Under the pieces are notes generated by a model. The model was not told the DNA's origin. It was given only the letters and a program-made list of their open reading frames with translations, and ran no database searches. A stretch of DNA of 33,682 bases, taken from UHGV virus genome UHGV-0018978. One strand, 5' to 3'. This DNA comes from a virus. Below are positions 1 to 26,147 of the stretch, one piece after another. A program made the translations under genes and the position numbers. How positions within the stretch are numbered: the stretch's first letter is position 1; every line of letters begins with the position of its first letter.

Positions 1-675
1 CCTGAATAGCTTAGTGTTTAGTCGCTTTTTTGCGCGCTTATTCAGGAACCTGATGTAGCGATACTGATTAAATTTGTGTACCACGGCCCGCTCCTTATTA
101 GCCCGCAAATACACGCCTCGTTGCCCTCCACGCTTAATCGCGTTCATCGTTATCTCGTGATACCACTCACCATCCAGCTCGTAGAACGTGCTTTCATGGC
201 TGCCAATAAAATCAAAATTCGACGCCTGATATACCACACCAGCGCGTCCGCAGCGTTCGTCGGCAAAAGACTGAACCCACTCCACTGACGGATACAGTAG
301 TCTGATGGTTTTTAGCGCGTAGCTGATGGCCCGTGATTCAGAGTTGCGGGGCATGTCGTCGTGTAGCCACATGCGGTTCAGTTCCATATAGCCCCGGTTA
401 TCCGTTTCAAGCACGACCCGACGCCCTGAGTTGGGGTTAAGGGCATATCCCCACTGAAGAACGCCAACCAGATCACGTCCGCTGAATACGCCCAGATGCA
501 GGTAGGAGTTATTCACAAAACGGCGGGAATAGTGTTTTGTCTGAATGATTGTGCGGGCCAGCCAGCAGGATATGGTTTCAACGCGCAGTTCCCTTGAACC
601 ATAGCCGACAATACGGCCTTCATACTCAATAACGCAGGGTTTTGTCAGAATGCGTGATTTCTTCTCTTTTCCCAC
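1..675 (-). CDS. mom: DNA modification protein Mom, C-terminus truncated by the window start; start codon uncertain (probably non-AUG, e.g. GTG at 673-675)
   Basis: Open minus-strand frame from about 675 to position 1 with no stop, beginning inside the 3' end of com as in Mu. No in-frame ATG; a GTG with GGAG 7 nt upstream is the best start candidate. Identity rests on position and overlap with com. Confidence 0.6.
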
Positions 676-811
676 AATACAACTCCGTGGGATGCTCCTG
701 GGCACTCGATATGACAATGTAACGTTTACAGCGAGGGCACTTAATTTCTATATGCTTAAAACCTCCTTTAAACAGTAATTTATTGCAGTTTTTACAGCGA
801 ACAGAGTCCAT
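626..811 (-). CDS. com: Com, zinc-finger translational activator of mom
   Basis: Translation [33 protein letters not shown]...[16 protein letters not shown] has the Cys4 pattern and closely matches my recollection of Mu Com. ATG at 811 has a GGGGG Shine-Dalgarno upstream; the listed 81-aa ORF from 871 is probably an N-terminal over-extension. Confidence 0.8.
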
Positions 812-935
812 GTTTCCCCCTGTGTTATAACCAGATATGACCGCCCGGAGGGCTGGGGGATATTTAATCATAATTGATGCAAACCGACGATCGATATAAT
901 GATATCGATCGTCATAAACTATACAAAATGATTGC
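812..935 (-). promoter_or_regulatory. com-mom regulatory region (candidate Pmom) containing a 28-bp palindrome with two GATC sites at 886-913
   Basis: Intergenic gap between the chaperone stop (936) and com start. Sequence gACGATCGATAT-AATG-ATATCGATCGTc has 12-bp arms, each with a GATC (889-892 and 907-910). In Mu the mom promoter is controlled through clustered Dam sites. Confidence 0.5.
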
Positions 936-1505
936 TTAATCGCCTGATGTGAACGCTCTTACCTCGTCCAGGGTGGACAGCAGGGAAAGCTGCGCTTTCA
1001 TCTCTCGCTGGCGCTGATAAATTTCATCATTGCGATCAGCCTGCGCCTGAACCATTGCCGTAAGTAGTTCATCCAGTTGTTGCATTGACAACTTTACCTG
1101 CTGATTTTCCGCATCACTCCATACCATGGTTTTCGGTGCCGTGACTGATTTTGCTGACATCACCATCGGGTAAAGACGGGCCATCGAATCCGGTCCCCCG
1201 TTCCAGCTATGACCGTTCCATTCGAACGTGAACGGCTGCGCCTCCTGTTCTGTACGCCATTCTTCTATTTCCTGACGTTTGGCTGCTTTTACGGCCTCCA
1301 GCAGTTCTGGTGTCACGACGAACGGGGTAATCTCACCCCATCTCCCGCTTTGCAGTTCCTGCCAGACTCGCTGCCCTGTCTCTGCTGTATCAGTGGCAGT
1401 TGCCGTATACGGAACAGGGGCATCCATGCCATCAAACAACACCTCGCAGTCAATCGCGCCATTCTCAAGATAACGCGCATTTTCAATTCGTTTTATCTGC
1501 ATCAT
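936..1505 (-). CDS. Tail fibre assembly/chaperone protein of the second fibre module
   Basis: 189-aa ORF immediately downstream of the large fibre gene, 4-bp gap. Assignment is by position and size; the sequence is not a typical Tfa/U-type chaperone. Confidence 0.5.
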   Translation of the reverse strand: MMQIKRIENARYLENGAIDCEVLFDGMDAPVPYTATATDTAETGQRVWQELQSGRWGEITPFVVTPELLEAVKAAKRQEIEEWRTEQEAQPFTFEWNGHSWNGGPDSMARLYPMVMSAKSVTAPKTMVWSDAENQQVKLSMQQLDELLTAMVQAQADRNDEIYQRQREMKAQLSLLSTLDEVRAFTSGD

Positions 1506-1509
1506 CTAC

Positions 1510-2949
1510 CTACATAATACGGACAAACAGACCTGTTATCGAAGTACCTGCACTCACTTTAGTTGTGGGTTCCCCTGACAGTGCCACAAACGTCCCTGCC
1601 ATTGGATACGCCGAAGGCGGTGCAATTACAATCTGCGGAGTTGAGGTGCTCAGGCCATTATGGCTGTACGGCGCTGTAACAGAAATGGCAGCAAGTCTGG
1701 AGCCTGACACACCGCTTCCCCTGAAAATTCTTCCGTCTTCATCCATGTCATTTATGCAGTATGCGGCAAACACGACCCCGCCAATTCCTGGATAACCGTA
1801 ATTATTGGCTCTTCCGGCGATGGAACGTAGCGTATCCGCAATCCCTGTTTCACCCAGCTTCAACCTTTCCCAGCCAGTCAGATAACCATTACCTGTTGTC
1901 CAGTAACGGTTGTAATAAATATCGCCATTAATACCGTAGAAAATAATGACCTTTGCTGTATATCGCGGTTCCGGTGGATTATTGCGTACCTCAACCCAGC
2001 GGATGCTGACCACCCCGTTAAACAACACACCTCCGGATATGATTTTACTGCCACCATCAACAAAATATTCACCCGGCGTCGCATTCCTTGCCCAGGACAG
2101 AAAATCATCCTCTGTGTTAAAACGGATACGCTCTGCGGGCAAAAAAATATGCCCAAAACCAAATGCGCCAGGTGTCGCCAGACAGCCTTCAGTCCGGTCA
2201 CGAATGTCGCTCTGTGGCGTCATCGTGGCTGCGCTTTTCAGTCCAAGATTATCACGGGATTCCTGCTGAGCCTCTTCACCTTCATCAGCCAGCTCTGACA
2301 GGCGATTCGCCGTTTTCAGTGTCGCAGATAACGCGGTGTCAATATCCTCCCTGACATGCTCTGCATCAGATGCAGCCTGTTTAGCAGCTTCAGCGTCCTT
2401 TTTTACCTCCTCGGCGGCATTCTCAACCTGTGAGACCAGATTTTCGGCCTGTTGTTTACCCTCCGCAACCGCGTCGGCGTTCTGCTGAACACCTTCCGCC
2501 AGTTTTTTTACCTCTTCTTTTGCCCGGGCGGCAGCGTCTGCATGTTGCCCTGCCTGCTGCTCGCTTTCTGCTGCGGCTTCCGCGCTCTGCTGCGCCTGCT
2601 GTGCCAGTTCCTCGTATTTCTTCAGGGATTCCGGGCGCAGGTCAATATCGGTTGCGCCCAGAAAATCATTCAGCGAACCATCCGCTGAATCTTCATAAAC
2701 GCGGATGACACCGATTTCTGAAAGGCGCTGTACACTCTGCGTCAGGCGAACGCTGTACACGCCCGGCAGAACGGGGAAGTTATATTCCCCATTCTGTGTG
2801 GTGACGTGACTGAAAACACCTTTCAGAATCCCTGCACGGTTGTGCAGGGAGGTCAGTGTAATGGTTGCGCCGCCCAGCGGTTCTCCCGTGGGCGTTTTAA
2901 TCACACCTTTAAGCTGCGGCATCGGGACGCTCCGGCCAGTTGATGGCAT
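1510..2949 (-). CDS. Tail fibre protein (second fibre) with a central Ala/Glu/Gln-rich coiled-coil region
   Basis: 479-aa ORF. N-terminal beta-rich segment, then a long A/E/Q/K-rich segment (roughly DNA 2262-2622), then a Gly/Tyr/Asn-rich C-terminal domain. This architecture is typical of phage side tail fibres. Confidence 0.7.
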   Translation of the reverse strand: MPSTGRSVPMPQLKGVIKTPTGEPLGGATITLTSLHNRAGILKGVFSHVTTQNGEYNFPVLPGVYSVRLTQSVQRLSEIGVIRVYEDSADGSLNDFLGATDIDLRPESLKKYEELAQQAQQSAEAAAESEQQAGQHADAAARAKEEVKKLAEGVQQNADAVAEGKQQAENLVSQVENAAEEVKKDAEAAKQAASDAEHVREDIDTALSATLKTANRLSELADEGEEAQQESRDNLGLKSAATMTPQSDIRDRTEGCLATPGAFGFGHIFLPAERIRFNTEDDFLSWARNATPGEYFVDGGSKIISGGVLFNGVVSIRWVEVRNNPPEPRYTAKVIIFYGINGDIYYNRYWTTGNGYLTGWERLKLGETGIADTLRSIAGRANNYGYPGIGGVVFAAYCINDMDEDGRIFRGSGVSGSRLAAISVTAPYSHNGLSTSTPQIVIAPPSAYPMAGTFVALSGEPTTKVSAGTSITGLFVRIM

Positions 2950-3475
2950 TAAAGGAGGCTTCGTCAGTAACGGTGCTTAAATCCAGCGCCTTCACCGCTT
3001 TGATATATTCCATCCACTGCGTAAGACGGACTTTGTCATCGTCGCTGATGGTGCCCAGCTCCAGCTCGGTTTTCCAGTCGGAAGTGATTTCCTTTGCTTC
3101 ATTCAGCAAGCGCTGACGTTGCTTTTCTGCCAGTTTCGAATAATCAACAGGAACTGGCAGTACTTCGCCATCCCGGTAATACCAGCTGGCTTCGATGCCA
3201 AAACCCTCCGGCAGCTCGTCCACTTCCACAATAGTGAAGCCAGCCGGATAAAGACGGGACACGTCTTCCGCCATCGAATAAATCACGCCGGTTTCCGGGT
3301 GAATACACAATTTGTATTTCTTCGTGAATTTATCCAGTGATTCATAAAAATCCTGTCCGTCTTCACTGCGGAAATACTGAATGTTTTCACCATAAGGCAT
3401 CTCTTCCGGGTAATAACGCGTGACGTTTCTGAGTTCCATTATTTTCTCCTTAATTAGCCGGATACCGTTCGCCAT
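2909..3475 (-). CDS. Tail fibre assembly protein, Mu U / lambda Tfa-like
   Basis: 188-aa ORF directly after the first fibre gene. Assignment is by position, size and a resemblance to Tfa/U chaperones judged from memory, not from an alignment. Confidence 0.75.
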   Translation of the reverse strand: MANGIRLIKEKIMELRNVTRYYPEEMPYGENIQYFRSEDGQDFYESLDKFTKKYKLCIHPETGVIYSMAEDVSRLYPAGFTIVEVDELPEGFGIEASWYYRDGEVLPVPVDYSKLAEKQRQRLLNEAKEITSDWKTELELGTISDDDKVRLTQWMEYIKAVKALDLSTVTDEASFNAINWPERPDAAA

Positions 3476-4263
3476 CCGCCATTGATATAAATCTGGGTTT
3501 GTTTGTAATACACGCCGCCGATGTTATCCGCAGAACTTCTGCCAGTATCCTGAACGTTAATACCTGACAAAATACACCCTGAAGGCGCGCGGAATACCCA
3601 GGAAATTTCGTTACCACCGGGATTGTGAAACACTTCTCTGGTGTATCTGAAATCACGTACTGCACCAGAATCGGTGCTGCTGATGGTGATATCTCTGGTG
3701 CCATCAAACAGCACATTGTTAATCCTGCGGGCCGTCTGAAGCCGGGTTGCCGTTCCGGCATTGCCGCTGATATTGCTGATGGTGATATCCGAAGACAAAG
3801 CCATACCGTTGACCCTGCGGGTATTCGGTACAGCACTATTGGCTTTATTTACCGTGTCACGTAATGAAAGTGCATCGATAATTTCACTGGCTGTGTTTTT
3901 CCCGAGAATACCGCGCACAAACGCACTGAGCGGCGTTAATGCCATTGTGTCTTCGCCCGTAAAATACGGGAATGTATTATTCTGACCGGTTAATCCGGCA
4001 ATAGCTCCGGCTGAACCACTGTTCGTAATAAACAGTTTTTTCAGCGCTGTCATAATCTGGTCGGTTGTGTTTTTATCCGGTTTGATATTTGCCTGCCGGA
4101 GAATTTCCAGCAGTTCAGACTGAATAATATTAAACCAGTCCGGCCCCGGATACGTGGGCGGAATACCGTTCCCGCCTTCGGTGAAATAAAGCGTCGCCAT
4201 GCTTGATACCGCCGCGACAGGTGGCATCACCGGCACACCCGTCGGGTTATCCACATAAAACAT
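3454..4263 (-). CDS. Tail fibre protein, Mu S-like but short (269 aa)
   Basis: Sits immediately after the gp48-like gene and before the U-like chaperone, the position of S in Mu. N-terminus MFYVDNPTGVPVMPPVAA is of the fibre N-terminal type. Confidence 0.7.
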   Translation of the reverse strand: MFYVDNPTGVPVMPPVAAVSSMATLYFTEGGNGIPPTYPGPDWFNIIQSELLEILRQANIKPDKNTTDQIMTALKKLFITNSGSAGAIAGLTGQNNTFPYFTGEDTMALTPLSAFVRGILGKNTASEIIDALSLRDTVNKANSAVPNTRRVNGMALSSDITISNISGNAGTATRLQTARRINNVLFDGTRDITISSTDSGAVRDFRYTREVFHNPGGNEISWVFRAPSGCILSGINVQDTGRSSADNIGGVYYKQTQIYINGGWRTVSG

Positions 4264-7948: not shown

Positions 7949-9222
7949 CAGTCGGTAATCTCCACAGGTTGCGTCGGCAGAATGAATGACGGATGGCGCA
8001 GGCGGTTACGCTTCACGATTTCATCCCGTCGGCTGGTGTCACCATGCTCGCGCCATGCCAGCAATGCGGCAGATGTGGTTGTGGTCAACGTCACCTGCCG
8101 GGTTTCCGGCAGACGGGCGGCACGCTCGCGGGCATCCGTAATCACGGCCTGCCGTAAATCGCGCAGCGTTCGCCACAATGCCCGCTGGTTATTTTCCACC
8201 GCCGCCACCGCCTGCTCATGAAGTTCAGCCGCCAGCGTGTCACCGGCAGATAACGCCGCATCACTGGTATCGAACGTCATCGAGGCCACAGCATTTGCCT
8301 GTCCCAGCAGGGTTTCCAGCACAACCACCTGGCGGAAGTCGTCAATGTTCTTCTGCAGGCTGACAGATACCGGCTGATAATCCGGTGACAGCCCGATAGC
8401 AAAGCCAATTTCGCCGTCTGCCACGCTGCCTGGCTTCACGGTGATATCTTCCGGCAGTGCGCCGGTGGCAACCTGTCGGGCGCGTTCTCCGGCCCACTGG
8501 TTGCGTAATGTCGTGTAAACCGCCAGTGCTTCGGGTGGTTCCGTCACCAGATCAACCACGCCGTCGATGAACGAGGACAGCTCACTGACCAGGCGCCCCG
8601 GCGTGGCAATAATGGTTCCGGCCATCTCCTTAAAATGGTTCAGCCTGTCCATCCACTGATTCAGTGCTGCCGGTAGCGTGGGCAGGTTAGCCACAAGGTT
8701 TTCCATATCGGCCAGAAAGCTGTCGGCCATCTCACCCAGCCCGTCGAGTGCGCCGAACCAGTCGCCATCGTCAATGGCGGCTTTCACCGCATCAATGCCC
8801 GTCAGCACTTCCTGCTGCGTGTTATCCGCCGCAGACGGGAACAGGCGCTCGCCTGCCTCAAACACTTCAAAAGTGACATACGCAATGCCGTCTTCCTCCG
8901 TGCTGAGGCGATGGGTGACCTTGCCAACCTGTACGGTCTGTATCCCGAACCACGGGTGGATAAGCTCGCCGGGGCCGGGGGTATTGAGCGCGTCTAAAAG
9001 GGCGTTTAAATCATCCCGGAAGTTTTTACCTGGCAGCTTTGCGTTAATCTGCTGTTGCCCCGGAACGGCCCCGTTATCATCCGTCCAGGCGGTTTCACTC
9101 CGGGGGTAAGCACGGGGAATAGCCCTGCGGCCACCGGTGCCTTCTGTATCCACCAGAAAGAAGGGAACGCCGCGAAACGAGGCGTCGCGCAGCCCGTCCC
9201 ATTTGCCATTGCCTGTTGTCAT
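7948..9222 (-). CDS. Mu-like DNA circulation protein
   Basis: 424-aa ORF directly downstream of the tape measure gene, as in Mu-like phages. Confidence 0.55.
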   Translation of the reverse strand: MTTGNGKWDGLRDASFRGVPFFLVDTEGTGGRRAIPRAYPRSETAWTDDNGAVPGQQQINAKLPGKNFRDDLNALLDALNTPGPGELIHPWFGIQTVQVGKVTHRLSTEEDGIAYVTFEVFEAGERLFPSAADNTQQEVLTGIDAVKAAIDDGDWFGALDGLGEMADSFLADMENLVANLPTLPAALNQWMDRLNHFKEMAGTIIATPGRLVSELSSFIDGVVDLVTEPPEALAVYTTLRNQWAGERARQVATGALPEDITVKPGSVADGEIGFAIGLSPDYQPVSVSLQKNIDDFRQVVVLETLLGQANAVASMTFDTSDAALSAGDTLAAELHEQAVAAVENNQRALWRTLRDLRQAVITDARERAARLPETRQVTLTTTTSAALLAWREHGDTSRRDEIVKRNRLRHPSFILPTQPVEITD

Positions 9223-11069
9223 TACCCTTGCTCCACGCTGGTGACGCCAGCCTGCGCACTGAGTCTGACGCCGGGTTGATCCACTCTGACACTTTTCACG
9301 CGGGCATCACCTTCCACCACCACACGGATTTCCCCCTGCAATTGCTGCGGAAGGAAAGGATAATTCTGTGTGGGTTGCATACCTGCCCACGGTCGCGGGT
9401 CGGCAATGTTCTTGTCACCCAGCGAGTTGAACCAGTCCGTTACCTTACGCCAGACGGACTCGAGCGCTTTCTGGTTATCCTGGCTTTGTTGCGCGAACTC
9501 GCGCTCCCACGGGCTGGCGCTGGCATTACCGGCAACGAATTTTGTAAGGCTGTCAACCTCACCCGGCTGGGCATATTGCGTGGTCAGAAAATCGTAAAAC
9601 TCCAGAGCACCGGCAATGATGCCAGCGCCTTTACCTGCCTTTCCTCCACGCTTACCCGACCCCCGAGGATTGCGGGGATTGCGCGATGAATCCGGTGCAT
9701 CCGGCAGACCGCCGGTATTACCATTCATCCCGCTACTGCCCATATTGACCACATACACCGGCATCACGCCGGAGCCGAAAACATCCGTGATGCCACCGGG
9801 TATCCCTTTGCCTTTCCCTTTGGGATTCATGATGTCGTGGATGGTTTTACCGAACTGATACGTCTTTCTGATGGCGATAATGCCGCCCAGCGCGATCGCC
9901 ATATATTTACCGACCTGCAACCAGTTCTGGACAGTGTTCTGGTCCACGCTGTTGAGCGCATCAGCCAGGTCCTGAACGGGCTTTGCCAGTTGCCCTTCAG
10001 CAAAACGTTGCCATTCGTTATTCAGTGACTGTATTGCGGCATTAAAGCCTTCGGCATTGGTCTGTGCGGCCTTTTGCGTGGAACCCAGCTCAATCGTGCC
10101 GTAAATCATTTGTTCCATCAGTTGCCGGTTTTCAGGGTTGAGCAGCGCCTTAATCCCCTGCATCCCGGTCTGATCAAACACATCCTGAAGTTTCAGCGGG
10201 TCGTATTTGGCCCGTTTAAGGATTTCCATCATCAGCTCATAGGGCTTTTTGATGTCTTTTGTGCCTTTGACAAAAACGTCAATGCCGTTTTTTTTCAGGA
10301 ACTCGATGTTCTTTTTGTCCGACAGGGAAGCATACATGGCCTGAATACTGGTTACCGTCTCATCAATGCTGCCTTTGTTTTTGGCGAACACCTGAGCAAA
10401 TGCCCCCATCTGGGCAATGGCTTCCGGTCCCTGATCCTGAATGATGGAAAACAGTTTCGGGGCAGCGCGGGCAACATCGGCAACGCTTACAGACCCCACT
10501 GCGAACTGCGAATACAGCCTGTCCATCATGTTATTGACCGCATCAGCACCCCGGACGTTTTTTTCCCAGAACTGGGCCATCAGCCCGGCTGCAACCTGTC
10601 CGTCAACACCGAACGCCTGCATCATCAACCCCATGTTGCGGAGGTTGTCCACCACATACTGATAATCACCGGTTTTCCCCAGAAGTTCGCTGGCCCCCTG
10701 ACCAAGCGCAGAAGCATCAATACGAATATCTTTCTGGTTCGATACATCCCTGATTTTGTCGTGAAGCGTCTTTACCTGTTCAGTGGTTAACTGGGCATCC
10801 GTACCCATCCGGCGCATCTGCGCATCAAAATCGGCAACCTGTTTGATGGTAAGACTACTGCCAAGCCCGGCTATCATTGCCGTGTAGCGGTTACCAAGCG
10901 TATCAAGGCCGCGTCCTGCGGCCTCCGTTGTGGCTTTGACAAGGCGCATGGCCTTCTGATGGTTCCGGGCGAACTGCGACATATTTGCGCCGTACTGCCG
11001 GGCTTTGGCGGTCAGGTTCCCGGCAAGGTTGATCATGATTTCCGTGCTGAGACGGTTACCTGTTGCCAT
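9222..11069 (-). CDS. Tail tape measure protein
   Basis: 615-aa ORF between the tail chaperone and baseplate genes; Gly-rich stretches (GKGKGIPGG, GSGKRGGKAGKGAG) and predicted helical regions. Confidence 0.7.
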   Translation of the reverse strand: MATGNRLSTEIMINLAGNLTAKARQYGANMSQFARNHQKAMRLVKATTEAAGRGLDTLGNRYTAMIAGLGSSLTIKQVADFDAQMRRMGTDAQLTTEQVKTLHDKIRDVSNQKDIRIDASALGQGASELLGKTGDYQYVVDNLRNMGLMMQAFGVDGQVAAGLMAQFWEKNVRGADAVNNMMDRLYSQFAVGSVSVADVARAAPKLFSIIQDQGPEAIAQMGAFAQVFAKNKGSIDETVTSIQAMYASLSDKKNIEFLKKNGIDVFVKGTKDIKKPYELMMEILKRAKYDPLKLQDVFDQTGMQGIKALLNPENRQLMEQMIYGTIELGSTQKAAQTNAEGFNAAIQSLNNEWQRFAEGQLAKPVQDLADALNSVDQNTVQNWLQVGKYMAIALGGIIAIRKTYQFGKTIHDIMNPKGKGKGIPGGITDVFGSGVMPVYVVNMGSSGMNGNTGGLPDAPDSSRNPRNPRGSGKRGGKAGKGAGIIAGALEFYDFLTTQYAQPGEVDSLTKFVAGNASASPWEREFAQQSQDNQKALESVWRKVTDWFNSLGDKNIADPRPWAGMQPTQNYPFLPQQLQGEIRVVVEGDARVKSVRVDQPGVRLSAQAGVTSVEQG

Positions 11070-11155
11070 GCTGTTTCTCCAGTTGCTTTATCAGGCGGAA
11101 CAGCTGCCGCAGGGGCAGCTGTTCCAGGTACTGAATGCTGAATCGCTGAGACAGG

Positions 11156-11551
11156 TTAACCAGCAGGTTCATCAGTGCCGCCGCCAGCGGCATCAGTTCG
11201 CCCCCGCGTTGCCACCTCCTCAAGCATTTCATCCAGCGCAGCAGCTTTGGTGCTGATAAGCTCAAGGTCTGCCGGGTGGAGCATTCGCAGCTGTTTCATG
11301 TCCAGCGGACCGGGGATATTGCCGATGGCCGCAACCTGACGGCGCATCATCTCCAGCCCCATCAGCACTTCAGAACAGTAGGCCACCGCCTTTCCGTTCC
11401 CACCCAGGACGACGCGTTCTGCGGCCAGTTGTGCATCAATCACATCACTGGCGGTCAGTTCGCGCAGCTTCACGGTTTTATGCAGGGTTTCATCTGCCGT
11501 ACCTTTGCCGGTCAGAAGCCCATGTTTCAGTTCAAATGTCATTTCAGCCAT
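11156..11551 (-). CDS. Tail assembly chaperone (Mu gp41-like)
   Basis: 131-aa acidic ORF between tail tube and tape measure, the conserved chaperone slot. An overlapping ORF at 11056-11265 in another frame might be a frameshift extension. Confidence 0.5.
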   Translation of the reverse strand: MAEMTFELKHGLLTGKGTADETLHKTVKLRELTASDVIDAQLAAERVVLGGNGKAVAYCSEVLMGLEMMRRQVAAIGNIPGPLDMKQLRMLHPADLELISTKAAALDEMLEEVATRGRTDAAGGGTDEPAG

Positions 11552-24553: not shown

Positions 24554-25150
24554 TCACCCCCGCGTGGCGGACATGATGCCCAGAGGGGTATCGATGATTT
24601 CCAGACAGGCGTCGGTCAGTTCTTCCATGCGGTTAAACCAGCCGTTCAGGTATTTGCCACGAGCGGGTTTTGATTTGATGAGGCCCGCATAAAAGCGGCA
24701 ACGGCGAACAATGCAGCGGGACAGCAGCCAGTCCGGGGTGGACAGGCTCACAGCCTTGCGGGTACGCGGGCCGATGATGCCATCGGCAGACACATCAGCG
24801 GCTTCCTGTAAAAACTTGACGGCTTGCTCCACGCCATGCTGAACAGCCGCATCAAACACAAAGAGCGCCACACCATCAGGCCACTGATCACACCCGGCAA
24901 GCAGCCAGTAATCGCGCCAGTAAATCTGCGCAACCTGTTCGCGGGTCAAATCCTTAATGCGGGTATCTGGTTTGCCGTCGCCGTTGACATCGGTTTTGCC
25001 GTCAATCACACCGTCGCGGCGGTCAGAAATGCCGTATTTTGTTTCGCCGCCGCTGTCAGTGGGGTCATTGACATAGCCGCCTTCGATATCAGGACGCAGA
25101 ATAAAATTCAGCGCATGTTCAAAGGCCGGGGAGAATTTTTGATTTTCCAT
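24554..25150 (-). CDS. Endolysin, GH108-type lysozyme with a peptidoglycan-binding domain
   Basis: 198 aa. The N-terminal EGGYVNDPTDSGGETKYGIS motif is characteristic of GH108 enzymes. No N-terminal transmembrane/SAR segment. Confidence 0.75.
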   Translation of the reverse strand: MENQKFSPAFEHALNFILRPDIEGGYVNDPTDSGGETKYGISDRRDGVIDGKTDVNGDGKPDTRIKDLTREQVAQIYWRDYWLLAGCDQWPDGVALFVFDAAVQHGVEQAVKFLQEAADVSADGIIGPRTRKAVSLSTPDWLLSRCIVRRCRFYAGLIKSKPARGKYLNGWFNRMEELTDACLEIIDTPLGIMSATRG

Positions 25151-25251: not shown

Positions 25252-25749
25252 TCAGTTAACTTTACGGGCAGAACACGTAGTCTTCATTACTGAACGTTCA
25301 ATTTTTATCTTCCAGCCATTTACTGTTTTTTCGACAGGATCATCTTCAGCTTGCTTTAAATTTTTAACTTGCATGAAATTCAGCGGGGCTGGGGTATCAT
25401 CGTCCCATGATGTCGGGCGAACATAATCAGGGACAACAAAAGGCTCAAAAACAGTTTCACATAAAGCAGACGTCATTTGAGCGAACTCGTCGCTATCGGG
25501 GCGAACCGGTCCTGTAACATACTGCATTTTTATGTTGATTTCGTTATCTCGCACAGACGTCTTTAAATCCTGATATACACCTAAGTTAAATCCTTTAAAC
25601 TCAGCAATGGCAGCGTCACCTTTACCGTACCAGTCGGTATAGTCAACGGATGTTTTTTTCTGAAAAACATCTTTGACTTTTTGCTGGAATGTATCCGCCG
25701 CTTGTACAGTAGTAACAGTTAGTAAAAGAATAAGGGGAAGATATTTCAT
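25252..25749 (-). CDS. Secreted/periplasmic protein of unknown function with an N-terminal signal peptide (candidate moron)
   Basis: 165 aa starting MKYLPLILLLTVTTVQA-ADT, a typical Sec signal. The gene is AT-rich relative to the flanking phage genes and has its own terminator. Confidence 0.6.
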   Translation of the reverse strand: MKYLPLILLLTVTTVQAADTFQQKVKDVFQKKTSVDYTDWYGKGDAAIAEFKGFNLGVYQDLKTSVRDNEINIKMQYVTGPVRPDSDEFAQMTSALCETVFEPFVVPDYVRPTSWDDDTPAPLNFMQVKNLKQAEDDPVEKTVNGWKIKIERSVMKTTCSARKVN

Positions 25750-26147
25750 TGTTCGTCCTTAAATAGTTGCATTTGATACTTTCCACGCTCCAGTCGGCGC
25801 ATTCTTTTGATGGCCTGATATACCGTTTTGTATGTCACTTTGTAACGCTGCACCAGCTCCGCTACGTTTTTCCCATCAAAATCACGCCAGATGCGCATGT
25901 CTCTGATAAGATTTTCCAGTATTTTCCCTTTCGGAACATATACCTGAATCCCACCGATATGATTGCAAATCGCCACTACCAGCTCAAGGGAGTGGGCAGG
26001 GTTAACTCCAAGCCTTATCAGCTCTTGTCGCAACAGAGCATTCAGCTCAGCCAGTAAAGATGGAAATCCCGATTTTTCCTGAACATCATCAAAATATTCA
26101 AGGATACTGTCGTCCTGATAATCACCAAATAAATCCTGCTCTTTCAT
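25746..26147 (-). CDS. mor: Mor/C-family transcriptional activator
   Basis: 133 aa with an acidic N-terminus and a C-terminal helix-turn-helix (TYKTVYQAIKRMRRL); sits directly after gemA, as mor does in Mu. Whether it is the Mor or the C orthologue cannot be settled from sequence alone. Confidence 0.7.
   Translation of the reverse strand: MKEQDLFGDYQDDSILEYFDDVQEKSGFPSLLAELNALLRQELIRLGVNPAHSLELVVAICNHIGGIQVYVPKGKILENLIRDMRIWRDFDGKNVAELVQRYKVTYKTVYQAIKRMRRLERGKYQMQLFKDEQ

Follow-up and report, generated by a model that had tools for sequence, protein, structure and literature searches.

The 28-bp palindrome at 886-913 of the phage genome UHGV-0018978 is probably the centre of a Dam-methylation-sensitive OxyR repressor site upstream of the com-mom promoter, a counterpart of the operators of phage Mu mom and E. 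coli agn43. Mom protects phage DNA from many restriction enzymes, and its mistimed expression is toxic; the multilayered control of Mu mom is a textbook example of methylation-dependent gene regulation, and its repressor OxyR is also called MomR. The window, by which we mean the whole stretch of 33,682 nucleotides that was analysed, carries the palindrome between com and a tail gene, and the genes around it (mom, com and the DUF4376 gene) all lie on the minus strand:

1..675, minus strand: mom, with a GTG start at 675 that overlaps com and its last few codons beyond the left edge of the window (Pfam Mom PF25680, E = 1.7e-73)
626..811, minus strand: com, zinc-ribbon translational activator of mom (homology to Mu Com; Pfam Zn_ribbon_Com PF10122)
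936..1505, minus strand: DUF4376 gene, upstream and co-directional, annotated as tail-fibre assembly in related prophages; its stop codon lies 22 nt before the palindrome

Over window 1-801, the com-mom DNA shares 89-90% identity with Mu, D108 and SfMu, and the megablast match ends inside com at 801. A longer com ORF starting at 871 was considered and rejected, since in most relatives of the window's type (class B, described below) a 1-nt difference (ATACCCCC vs ATATCCCCC) puts the extension out of frame. Among 5426 complete E. coli genomes, 56 (~1%) carry Mu-like prophages whose structural genes are 95-97% identical to those of this phage, and the control region was detected in 49 genomes. 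Occurrence of both the prophage and the control region in E. coli genomes identifies E. coli or a close relative as the host; E. coli STEC383 (NZ_CP091026) and SA53-3 (NZ_CP076279) are examples of lysogens. Both dam and oxyR are present in E. coli.

The phage lacks gin and the invertible G segment, both of which Mu has at the corresponding position. The region 936-4263 holds two tandem pairs on the same strand, and in both a smaller gene of the assembly type comes after a tail-fibre-like gene; the last of these smaller genes is the DUF4376 gene (from the ORF list):

3454-4263 with 2909-3475, same strand: tail-fibre-like gene and assembly-type gene
1510-2949 with 936-1505, same strand: tail-fibre-like gene and assembly-type gene

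The palindrome itself reads GACGATCGATAT-AATG-ATATCGATCGTC and includes two Dam sites, 18 bp apart from start to start:

886..913, no strand: inverted repeat, inner core of the proposed operator (repeat finder; conservation in class B)
907..910, no strand: GATC1, the com-distal Dam site, homologue of the first Mu GATC (alignment)
889..892, no strand: GATC2, 18 bp from GATC1 toward com, homologous to the second GATC of Mu (alignment)

According to the repeat finder, its arms (886-897 and 902-913) are 12 nt each and 100% complementary across a 4-nt spacer. The original prediction had described a near-perfect palindrome with two Dam sites; the palindrome and both sites stand, and "near-perfect" needs amending, since the arms pair at 12 of 12 positions and are perfect. 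It had also placed the element 75-100 bp upstream of the com start, in agreement with the 75-102 nt measured from the com ATG (811, minus strand; start placed by Mu Com homology), the centre lying 88.5 nt upstream.

The whole window has just two perfect inverted repeats in which the arms reach 12 nt or more and the loop does not exceed 10 nt. First-order Markov shuffles of the window (200 shuffles) contained a mean of 0.025 such repeats per window, and only 4 of the 200 had any. As CGATCG is self-complementary, two such sites provide 6 of the 12 arm positions for free; for the other six the chance is ~4^-6. GATC as such is ~2.7-fold depleted in the window (45 occurrences vs 121 +/- 10 expected from dinucleotide-preserving shuffles, none of which was as low).

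We aligned the minus strand directly with the Mu mom upstream region, taking the G of the com-distal GATC on the com strand as index 0. The two align without a gap (window, TATAGTTTATGACGATCGATATCATTATATCGATCGTCGGTTTGCATCAATTATGATTAAATATCC; Mu, TATAGAAAACGACGATCGAATCAATTAAATCGATCGGTAATACAGATCGATTATGCCCCAATAACC) and share ATAG at index -12, the first GATC at 0, the second GATC at +18 and the TTATG of the activator site at +37. On this sequence evidence the palindrome is the homologue of the Dam/OxyR region of Mu, because the alignment is gap-free and the features keep the same offsets. The original prediction, that the element looks like the clustered Dam sites of Mu, is thereby supported: the window holds a colinear homologue at the sequence level, which runs ungapped from ATAG through GATC1 and GATC2, at identical spacing, to TTATG at the same distance. 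The homology was seen only by direct alignment; window 780-1000 had no match when the phage collection was searched by blastn in 'distant' mode.

In Mu, OxyR cannot bind once the three GATC sites, which lie within 43 bp, are methylated (Sun & Hattman 1996, as cited in PMC7549136); that these Dam sites block OxyR when methylated is also ascribed to Bolker & Kahmann 1989, as cited in PMC10742451. According to Toledano et al., as quoted in PMC4207228, it is in its reduced binding mode that OxyR represses mom. The window resembles this system in that the two regions are homologous and colinear, occupy the same place upstream of com-mom and have their variable part at the site centre. In contrast to the three GATC sites of Mu, the window has two, the third (index +31 in Mu) being replaced:

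876..879, minus strand: CATC at the place of the third GATC of Mu, a lost Dam site (alignment; invariant in class B)

Furthermore, the arms extend over 11-12 bp here and over ~7 bp in Mu, so that "a compact, symmetric version" of the Mu switch, as it had been called, is an apt description. The distal half of the Mu site lies inside the gin coding sequence, whereas that of the window is non-coding and follows the tail-fibre assembly gene. In Mu (1045-1075 of the locus) the gin stop codon falls between the first and the second GATC (..IENDDRIN*). Location of the distal half-site and first Dam site within gin may limit the symmetry of the operator in Mu.

OxyR sites bound by the reduced form have half-site centres ~32 bp apart (PMC2909390; PMC4856963), a distance of some three turns of the helix. 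All loci were scored against the half-site consensus ATAGnTnnnAnCTAT at 10 positions. The layout found in the window, ATAGTTTATGACGAT-N16-ATCGTCGGTTTGCAT, is that of Mu mom (ATAGAAAACGACGAT-N16-ATCGGTAATACAGAT) and of E. coli agn43 (ATAGAATAAAACGAT-N17-ATCGTTTATATCGAT), the half-sites of the latter two being assigned by consensus matching and not from published footprints:

877..922, minus strand: proposed 46-bp bipartite operator of the OxyR type (layout as in Mu mom and agn43)
908..922, minus strand: distal OxyR-like half-site ATAGTTTATGACGAT, 8/10 against ATAGnTnnnAnCTAT
877..891, minus strand: promoter-proximal half-site ATCGTCGGTTTGCAT, 5/10

In the whole 33.7 kb, just 3 sites score 8/10 or better, the distal half-site among them. 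A half-site occupies index -12 in nearly every locus (Mu 7/10, window 8/10, L030 9/10, L003 and L044 8/10), and a second one index +19 (Mu 7/10, L002 9/10, L003 and L045 7/10). The proximal half-site of the window, at 5/10, is weaker than that of Mu; its equivalents in agn43 and in locus L088 both score 8/10. The half-site centres are 31 bp apart in the window, as in Mu, and 32 bp apart in agn43, gtr and opvAB. The dyad axis of the palindrome is the exact midpoint of the two half-sites, and the palindrome thus corresponds to the two predicted inner OxyR contacts (CGAT and ATCG) together with the spacer between them. The functional unit is probably the entire 46-bp bipartite site at 877-922, with the palindrome just its centre. 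Given the 5/10 proximal half-site and the lost third GATC, the affinity for OxyR may be low. Contiguous half-sites 22 bp apart (the 'oxidised' mode) scored 4/10 each and were rejected for the extended mode.

In the agn43 operator, a validated switch, the repressor is blocked by Dam methylation of GATC sites inside the OxyR site (PMC3764049; PMC2909390). The regulatory region of E. coli K-12 flu (agn43) reads ATAGAATAAAACGATCAATATCTATTTTATCGATCGTTTATATCGAT; its three GATC are spaced 19 and 13 bp apart (18 and 13 in Mu), and its two half-sites, N17 apart, each score 8/10. The sites of the window, Mu and agn43 align with one 1-nt gap, and by a hand count the window and agn43 are identical at about 34 of 46 positions. 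The inner dyad of agn43, AACGATCaATA-N7-TATCGATCGTT, is nearly identical to that of the window, GACGATCGATA-N6-TATCGATCGTC. Both sites have ATAG...CGAT, then N16 or N17, then ATCG...xxAT, with inner arms of the form ACGATCrATA / TATCGATCGT and with GATC in the OxyR contacts. Unlike the window, agn43 has a third GATC, one extra central base and a strong proximal half-site (8/10), and it controls a bacterial adhesin known to phase-vary. This likeness is the strongest argument that the window element has the same mode of action.

Likewise, Salmonella gtr (P22) and opvAB carry GATC in OxyR half-sites ~32 bp apart that reduced OxyR binds. In studies of these operators, changing GATC to CATC removed methylation and kept the OxyR consensus (PMC2909390; PMC4856963), and that engineered change is the natural state at 876-879. 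Whereas gtr and opvAB have three or four half-sites, whose alternative occupation by OxyR yields ON and OFF states, a single pair of half-sites is evident in the window.

We examined the conservation of the element in Mom-based searches, which gave 47 loci from genome and viral collections and 80 loci from metagenomes. Class A, the Mu type, has gin upstream and three GATC (15 distinct sequences), and class B, the type of the window, has a tail gene upstream and two GATC (21 distinct sequences). Within class B, TATAG and the CATC at index 31-34 are invariant, the 11-bp arms are unchanged in 19 of 21 sequences, and variation is confined to the six central positions and the flanks. The two exceptions, L030 and L148, differ at the outermost position only, where a G-to-A change breaks the outermost pair and raises the OxyR half-site to 9/10. 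Most relatives have arms of 11 bp. The 12th, innermost pair is present in this window and L005 only, its left base being A, G, C or T opposite a fixed A in class B; this pair is fortuitous. The arm positions at index 3-7 and 14-18 are invariant, yet they belong to the spacer, for which the classical OxyR consensus specifies no bases; the extended symmetry goes beyond what that consensus can account for by itself. In IMG/VR the motif ACGATCGATA-N6-TATCGATCGT occurs only upstream of com-mom, in class-B loci (18 contigs).

The 18-bp GATC spacing is also found in L002, L003, L044, L045, L088 and L104. Half-site offsets are constant in Mom relatives down to 77-80% identity, with GATC sets 1+2+3, 1+2 or 2+3; class B, L002 and L104 keep the first two GATC only. 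More distant loci compare as follows:

L088: Mom identity 80%; three GATC, spaced 18+13; half-sites 7/10 and 8/10
L089 group: Mom identity 77-78%; GATC 2 and 3 kept, the first lost; half-sites 7/10 and 7/10
L104: Mom identity 74%; symmetric GATC pair 18 bp apart, without OxyR-like flanks
Mom relatives of 72% identity or less: no GATC cluster; half-sites not applicable

In metagenome loci L089-L103 and L118, at ~215-250 nt upstream of mom, the two GATC that are left are the second and the third, with a spacing of 13 bp.

Taken with the homology to Mu and agn43, this conservation makes it likely that the element belongs to the Mu mom / agn43 class of Dam-sensitive OxyR operators, with two GATC, a weak proximal half-site and an unusually strong dyad. 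In such a switch, Dam methylation of both GATC (907-910 and 889-892) would exclude OxyR, and a late activator could then switch on com-mom. On unmethylated or under-methylated sites, an OxyR tetramer in the extended 'reduced' mode would occupy 877-922 and keep the toxic mom off, contacting ATAG and CGAT in the distal half-site and ATCG and xCAT in the proximal one. The DNA would read as a palindrome because the two inner contacts are mirror images of each other.

Downstream of the operator, the similarity to Mu extends into the presumed activator site and then fades. Late promoters of Mu (sequences in PMC4461284) served as reference, the criterion for a C-activated promoter being TTAT-N6-ATAA followed by a CC-rich sequence and a -10 element 28 nt after ATAA. 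Two elements were read in the window:

855..873, minus strand: TTATGATTAAATATCCCCC, colinear with the Mu C-activator site TTATGCCCCAATAACCACA; presumed late-activator site (alignment)
832..837, minus strand: candidate -10 element TATCTG (L031 and L035 have TATCCT, the hexamer of the Mu P promoter), suggested by reading of the sequence only

Although TTATGATTAAATATCCCCC is colinear with the C site of Mu, no -10-like hexamer lies at the Mu distance, and the TTAT half of 855-873 is variable within class B. Colinearity with Mu ends at about index +52, and the core promoter differs beyond: the window has a GC-rich spacer, lacks the T6 run of Mu and has the com ATG 10 bp closer. A sigma-70 scan of 600-1300 found no consensus promoter, which fits an activator-dependent promoter. 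Mu-type late-promoter boxes (CCATAACCCC) number 39 in the window vs 28 +/- 5 by chance, which is not clearly above expectation, and none is convincingly promoter-like. A scan of 500-1300 against Rfam matched no family.

The C gene of Mu lies just upstream of lys. In the window, which lacks both phage ends, tblastn with Mu C found no C orthologue and matched just a Mor-like gene at 25746-26147 (63% identical to Mor, 32% to C). Since there is no C orthologue here, unlike in Mu, and the core promoter differs, the rest of the Mu regulatory scheme is not simply transferable to this phage. Between mor and a GH108 endolysin gene (24554-25150) lies an ORF of 165 aa (25252-25749) without a Pfam or PHROG match, followed by the canonical terminator GAAGCCGGTAAATCCGGCTTTTTTT. 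This ORF could encode the late regulator of the lineage.

The same inverted repeat might instead, or in addition, act as RNA. A hairpin on the com strand would then terminate, pause or stabilise transcripts at the 3' end of the tail operon and insulate com-mom from read-through, a role that we regard as possible but unlikely. The predicted hairpin has an energy of -17.1 kcal/mol (z = -4.2), which is close to the typical class-B value of -16.5; that of Mu is -8.5 (z = -1.0, not significant). The last tail gene stops 22 nt ahead of the hairpin of the window, which is the sole one in the 124-nt intergenic region; no other terminator is present there. Two of the sequence differences seen among relatives also spare the fold: the single arm mismatch of L002 and L003 is a G.U pair on the com strand, and L030, which loses the outer pair, gains an inner C-G pair and retains -16 kcal/mol. 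Of the 8 lineages whose upstream gene is co-directional, 6 have a hairpin, at -10.7 to -17.1 kcal/mol, and the 2 lineages with a divergent one have none (-3.1 and -4.5), but this orientation trend reaches only P ~0.09 in a rank test (n = 10, lineages not independent).

However, the stem is not followed by a U-tract: GGTTTGCA has 3 T in 8 positions, the post-stem sequence is GGUUUGCA, and the hairpins of the other lineages likewise lack one. A clear terminator of the same phage consists of a GC-rich stem and then T7, whereas the terminator scan makes no call at the palindrome and, over 600-1300, reports only an unrelated plus-strand site at 1125-1143. The 12th pair shows no covariation in class B, with any of the four bases opposite the A. 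Moreover, the conserved ATAG box, the CATC and the match to agn43 are left unexplained by a hairpin. We consider it quite unlikely that both roles were combined in this gin-less lineage, the operator having been reshaped into a two-GATC OxyR/Dam switch at the DNA level and an RNA hairpin that insulates com-mom from tail-operon read-through. If this dual purpose were real, the fewer methylation targets and the weak half-site might give heritable ON/OFF expression of mom in lysogens, as for agn43.

It is improbable that the palindrome is the operator of some other symmetric dimer, a phage regulator or another host protein, whether modulated by Dam or not. A protein reading GACGATCGATA as its half-site would fit both the weakness of the proximal half-site and the constancy of arm positions not covered by the OxyR consensus; L104 keeps a symmetric GATC pair at 18-bp spacing without OxyR-like flanks, and the phage, which has no C, carries beside its lysis genes the 165-aa ORF of no assigned family. 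But the analysis found no candidate protein, the same arms stand in the operator of agn43, a gene not under the control of any phage protein, and colinearity with the OxyR-controlled site of Mu gives a simpler account. That the palindrome is functionless, a relic of two CGATCG sites from a Mu-like ancestor with extra matches acquired by drift, is very hard to credit: half of the arm positions are indeed complementary automatically and the 12th pair is accidental, but each arm has five more paired positions that stay the same, or almost so, throughout 21 distinct sequences with variable flanks and centre, the extended symmetry recurs in L002, L003, L104 and agn43, and the shuffles predict far fewer than one such repeat per window.

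An OxyR operator of the Mu type at this position reveals no new mechanism; it indicates that this design persists in a different Mu-like prophage lineage, the one present in about one in a hundred complete E. coli genomes. Together the loci keep the bipartite geometry constant and vary the GATC sets, and they form a natural mutant series for asking which Dam sites exclude OxyR. The same series bears on phase variation of the agn43 type.

The class-B module (tail-fibre gene, com, mom and operator) also occurs on the 136-kb E. coli plasmid NZ_CP012497 (L148), with further plasmid matches in H56 and H57; these large plasmids are possibly phage-plasmids. A degenerate copy is found at 1480-1700 of L151 (E. 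coli NZ_CP182374), in which the operator and its palindrome are intact and com and most of mom are deleted directly downstream of the activator site.

The second perfect inverted repeat of the window with 12-bp arms, GGAACAGCTGCC-GCAGG-GGCAGCTGTTCC, lies at 11097-11125, between the stop of ORF 11156-11551 and the ATG (11069) of a 615-aa ORF (9222-11069). It is coding-like in another frame (..LEQLPLRQLFRLIK..) and may belong to a frameshifted extension of a tail-chaperone-like gene.
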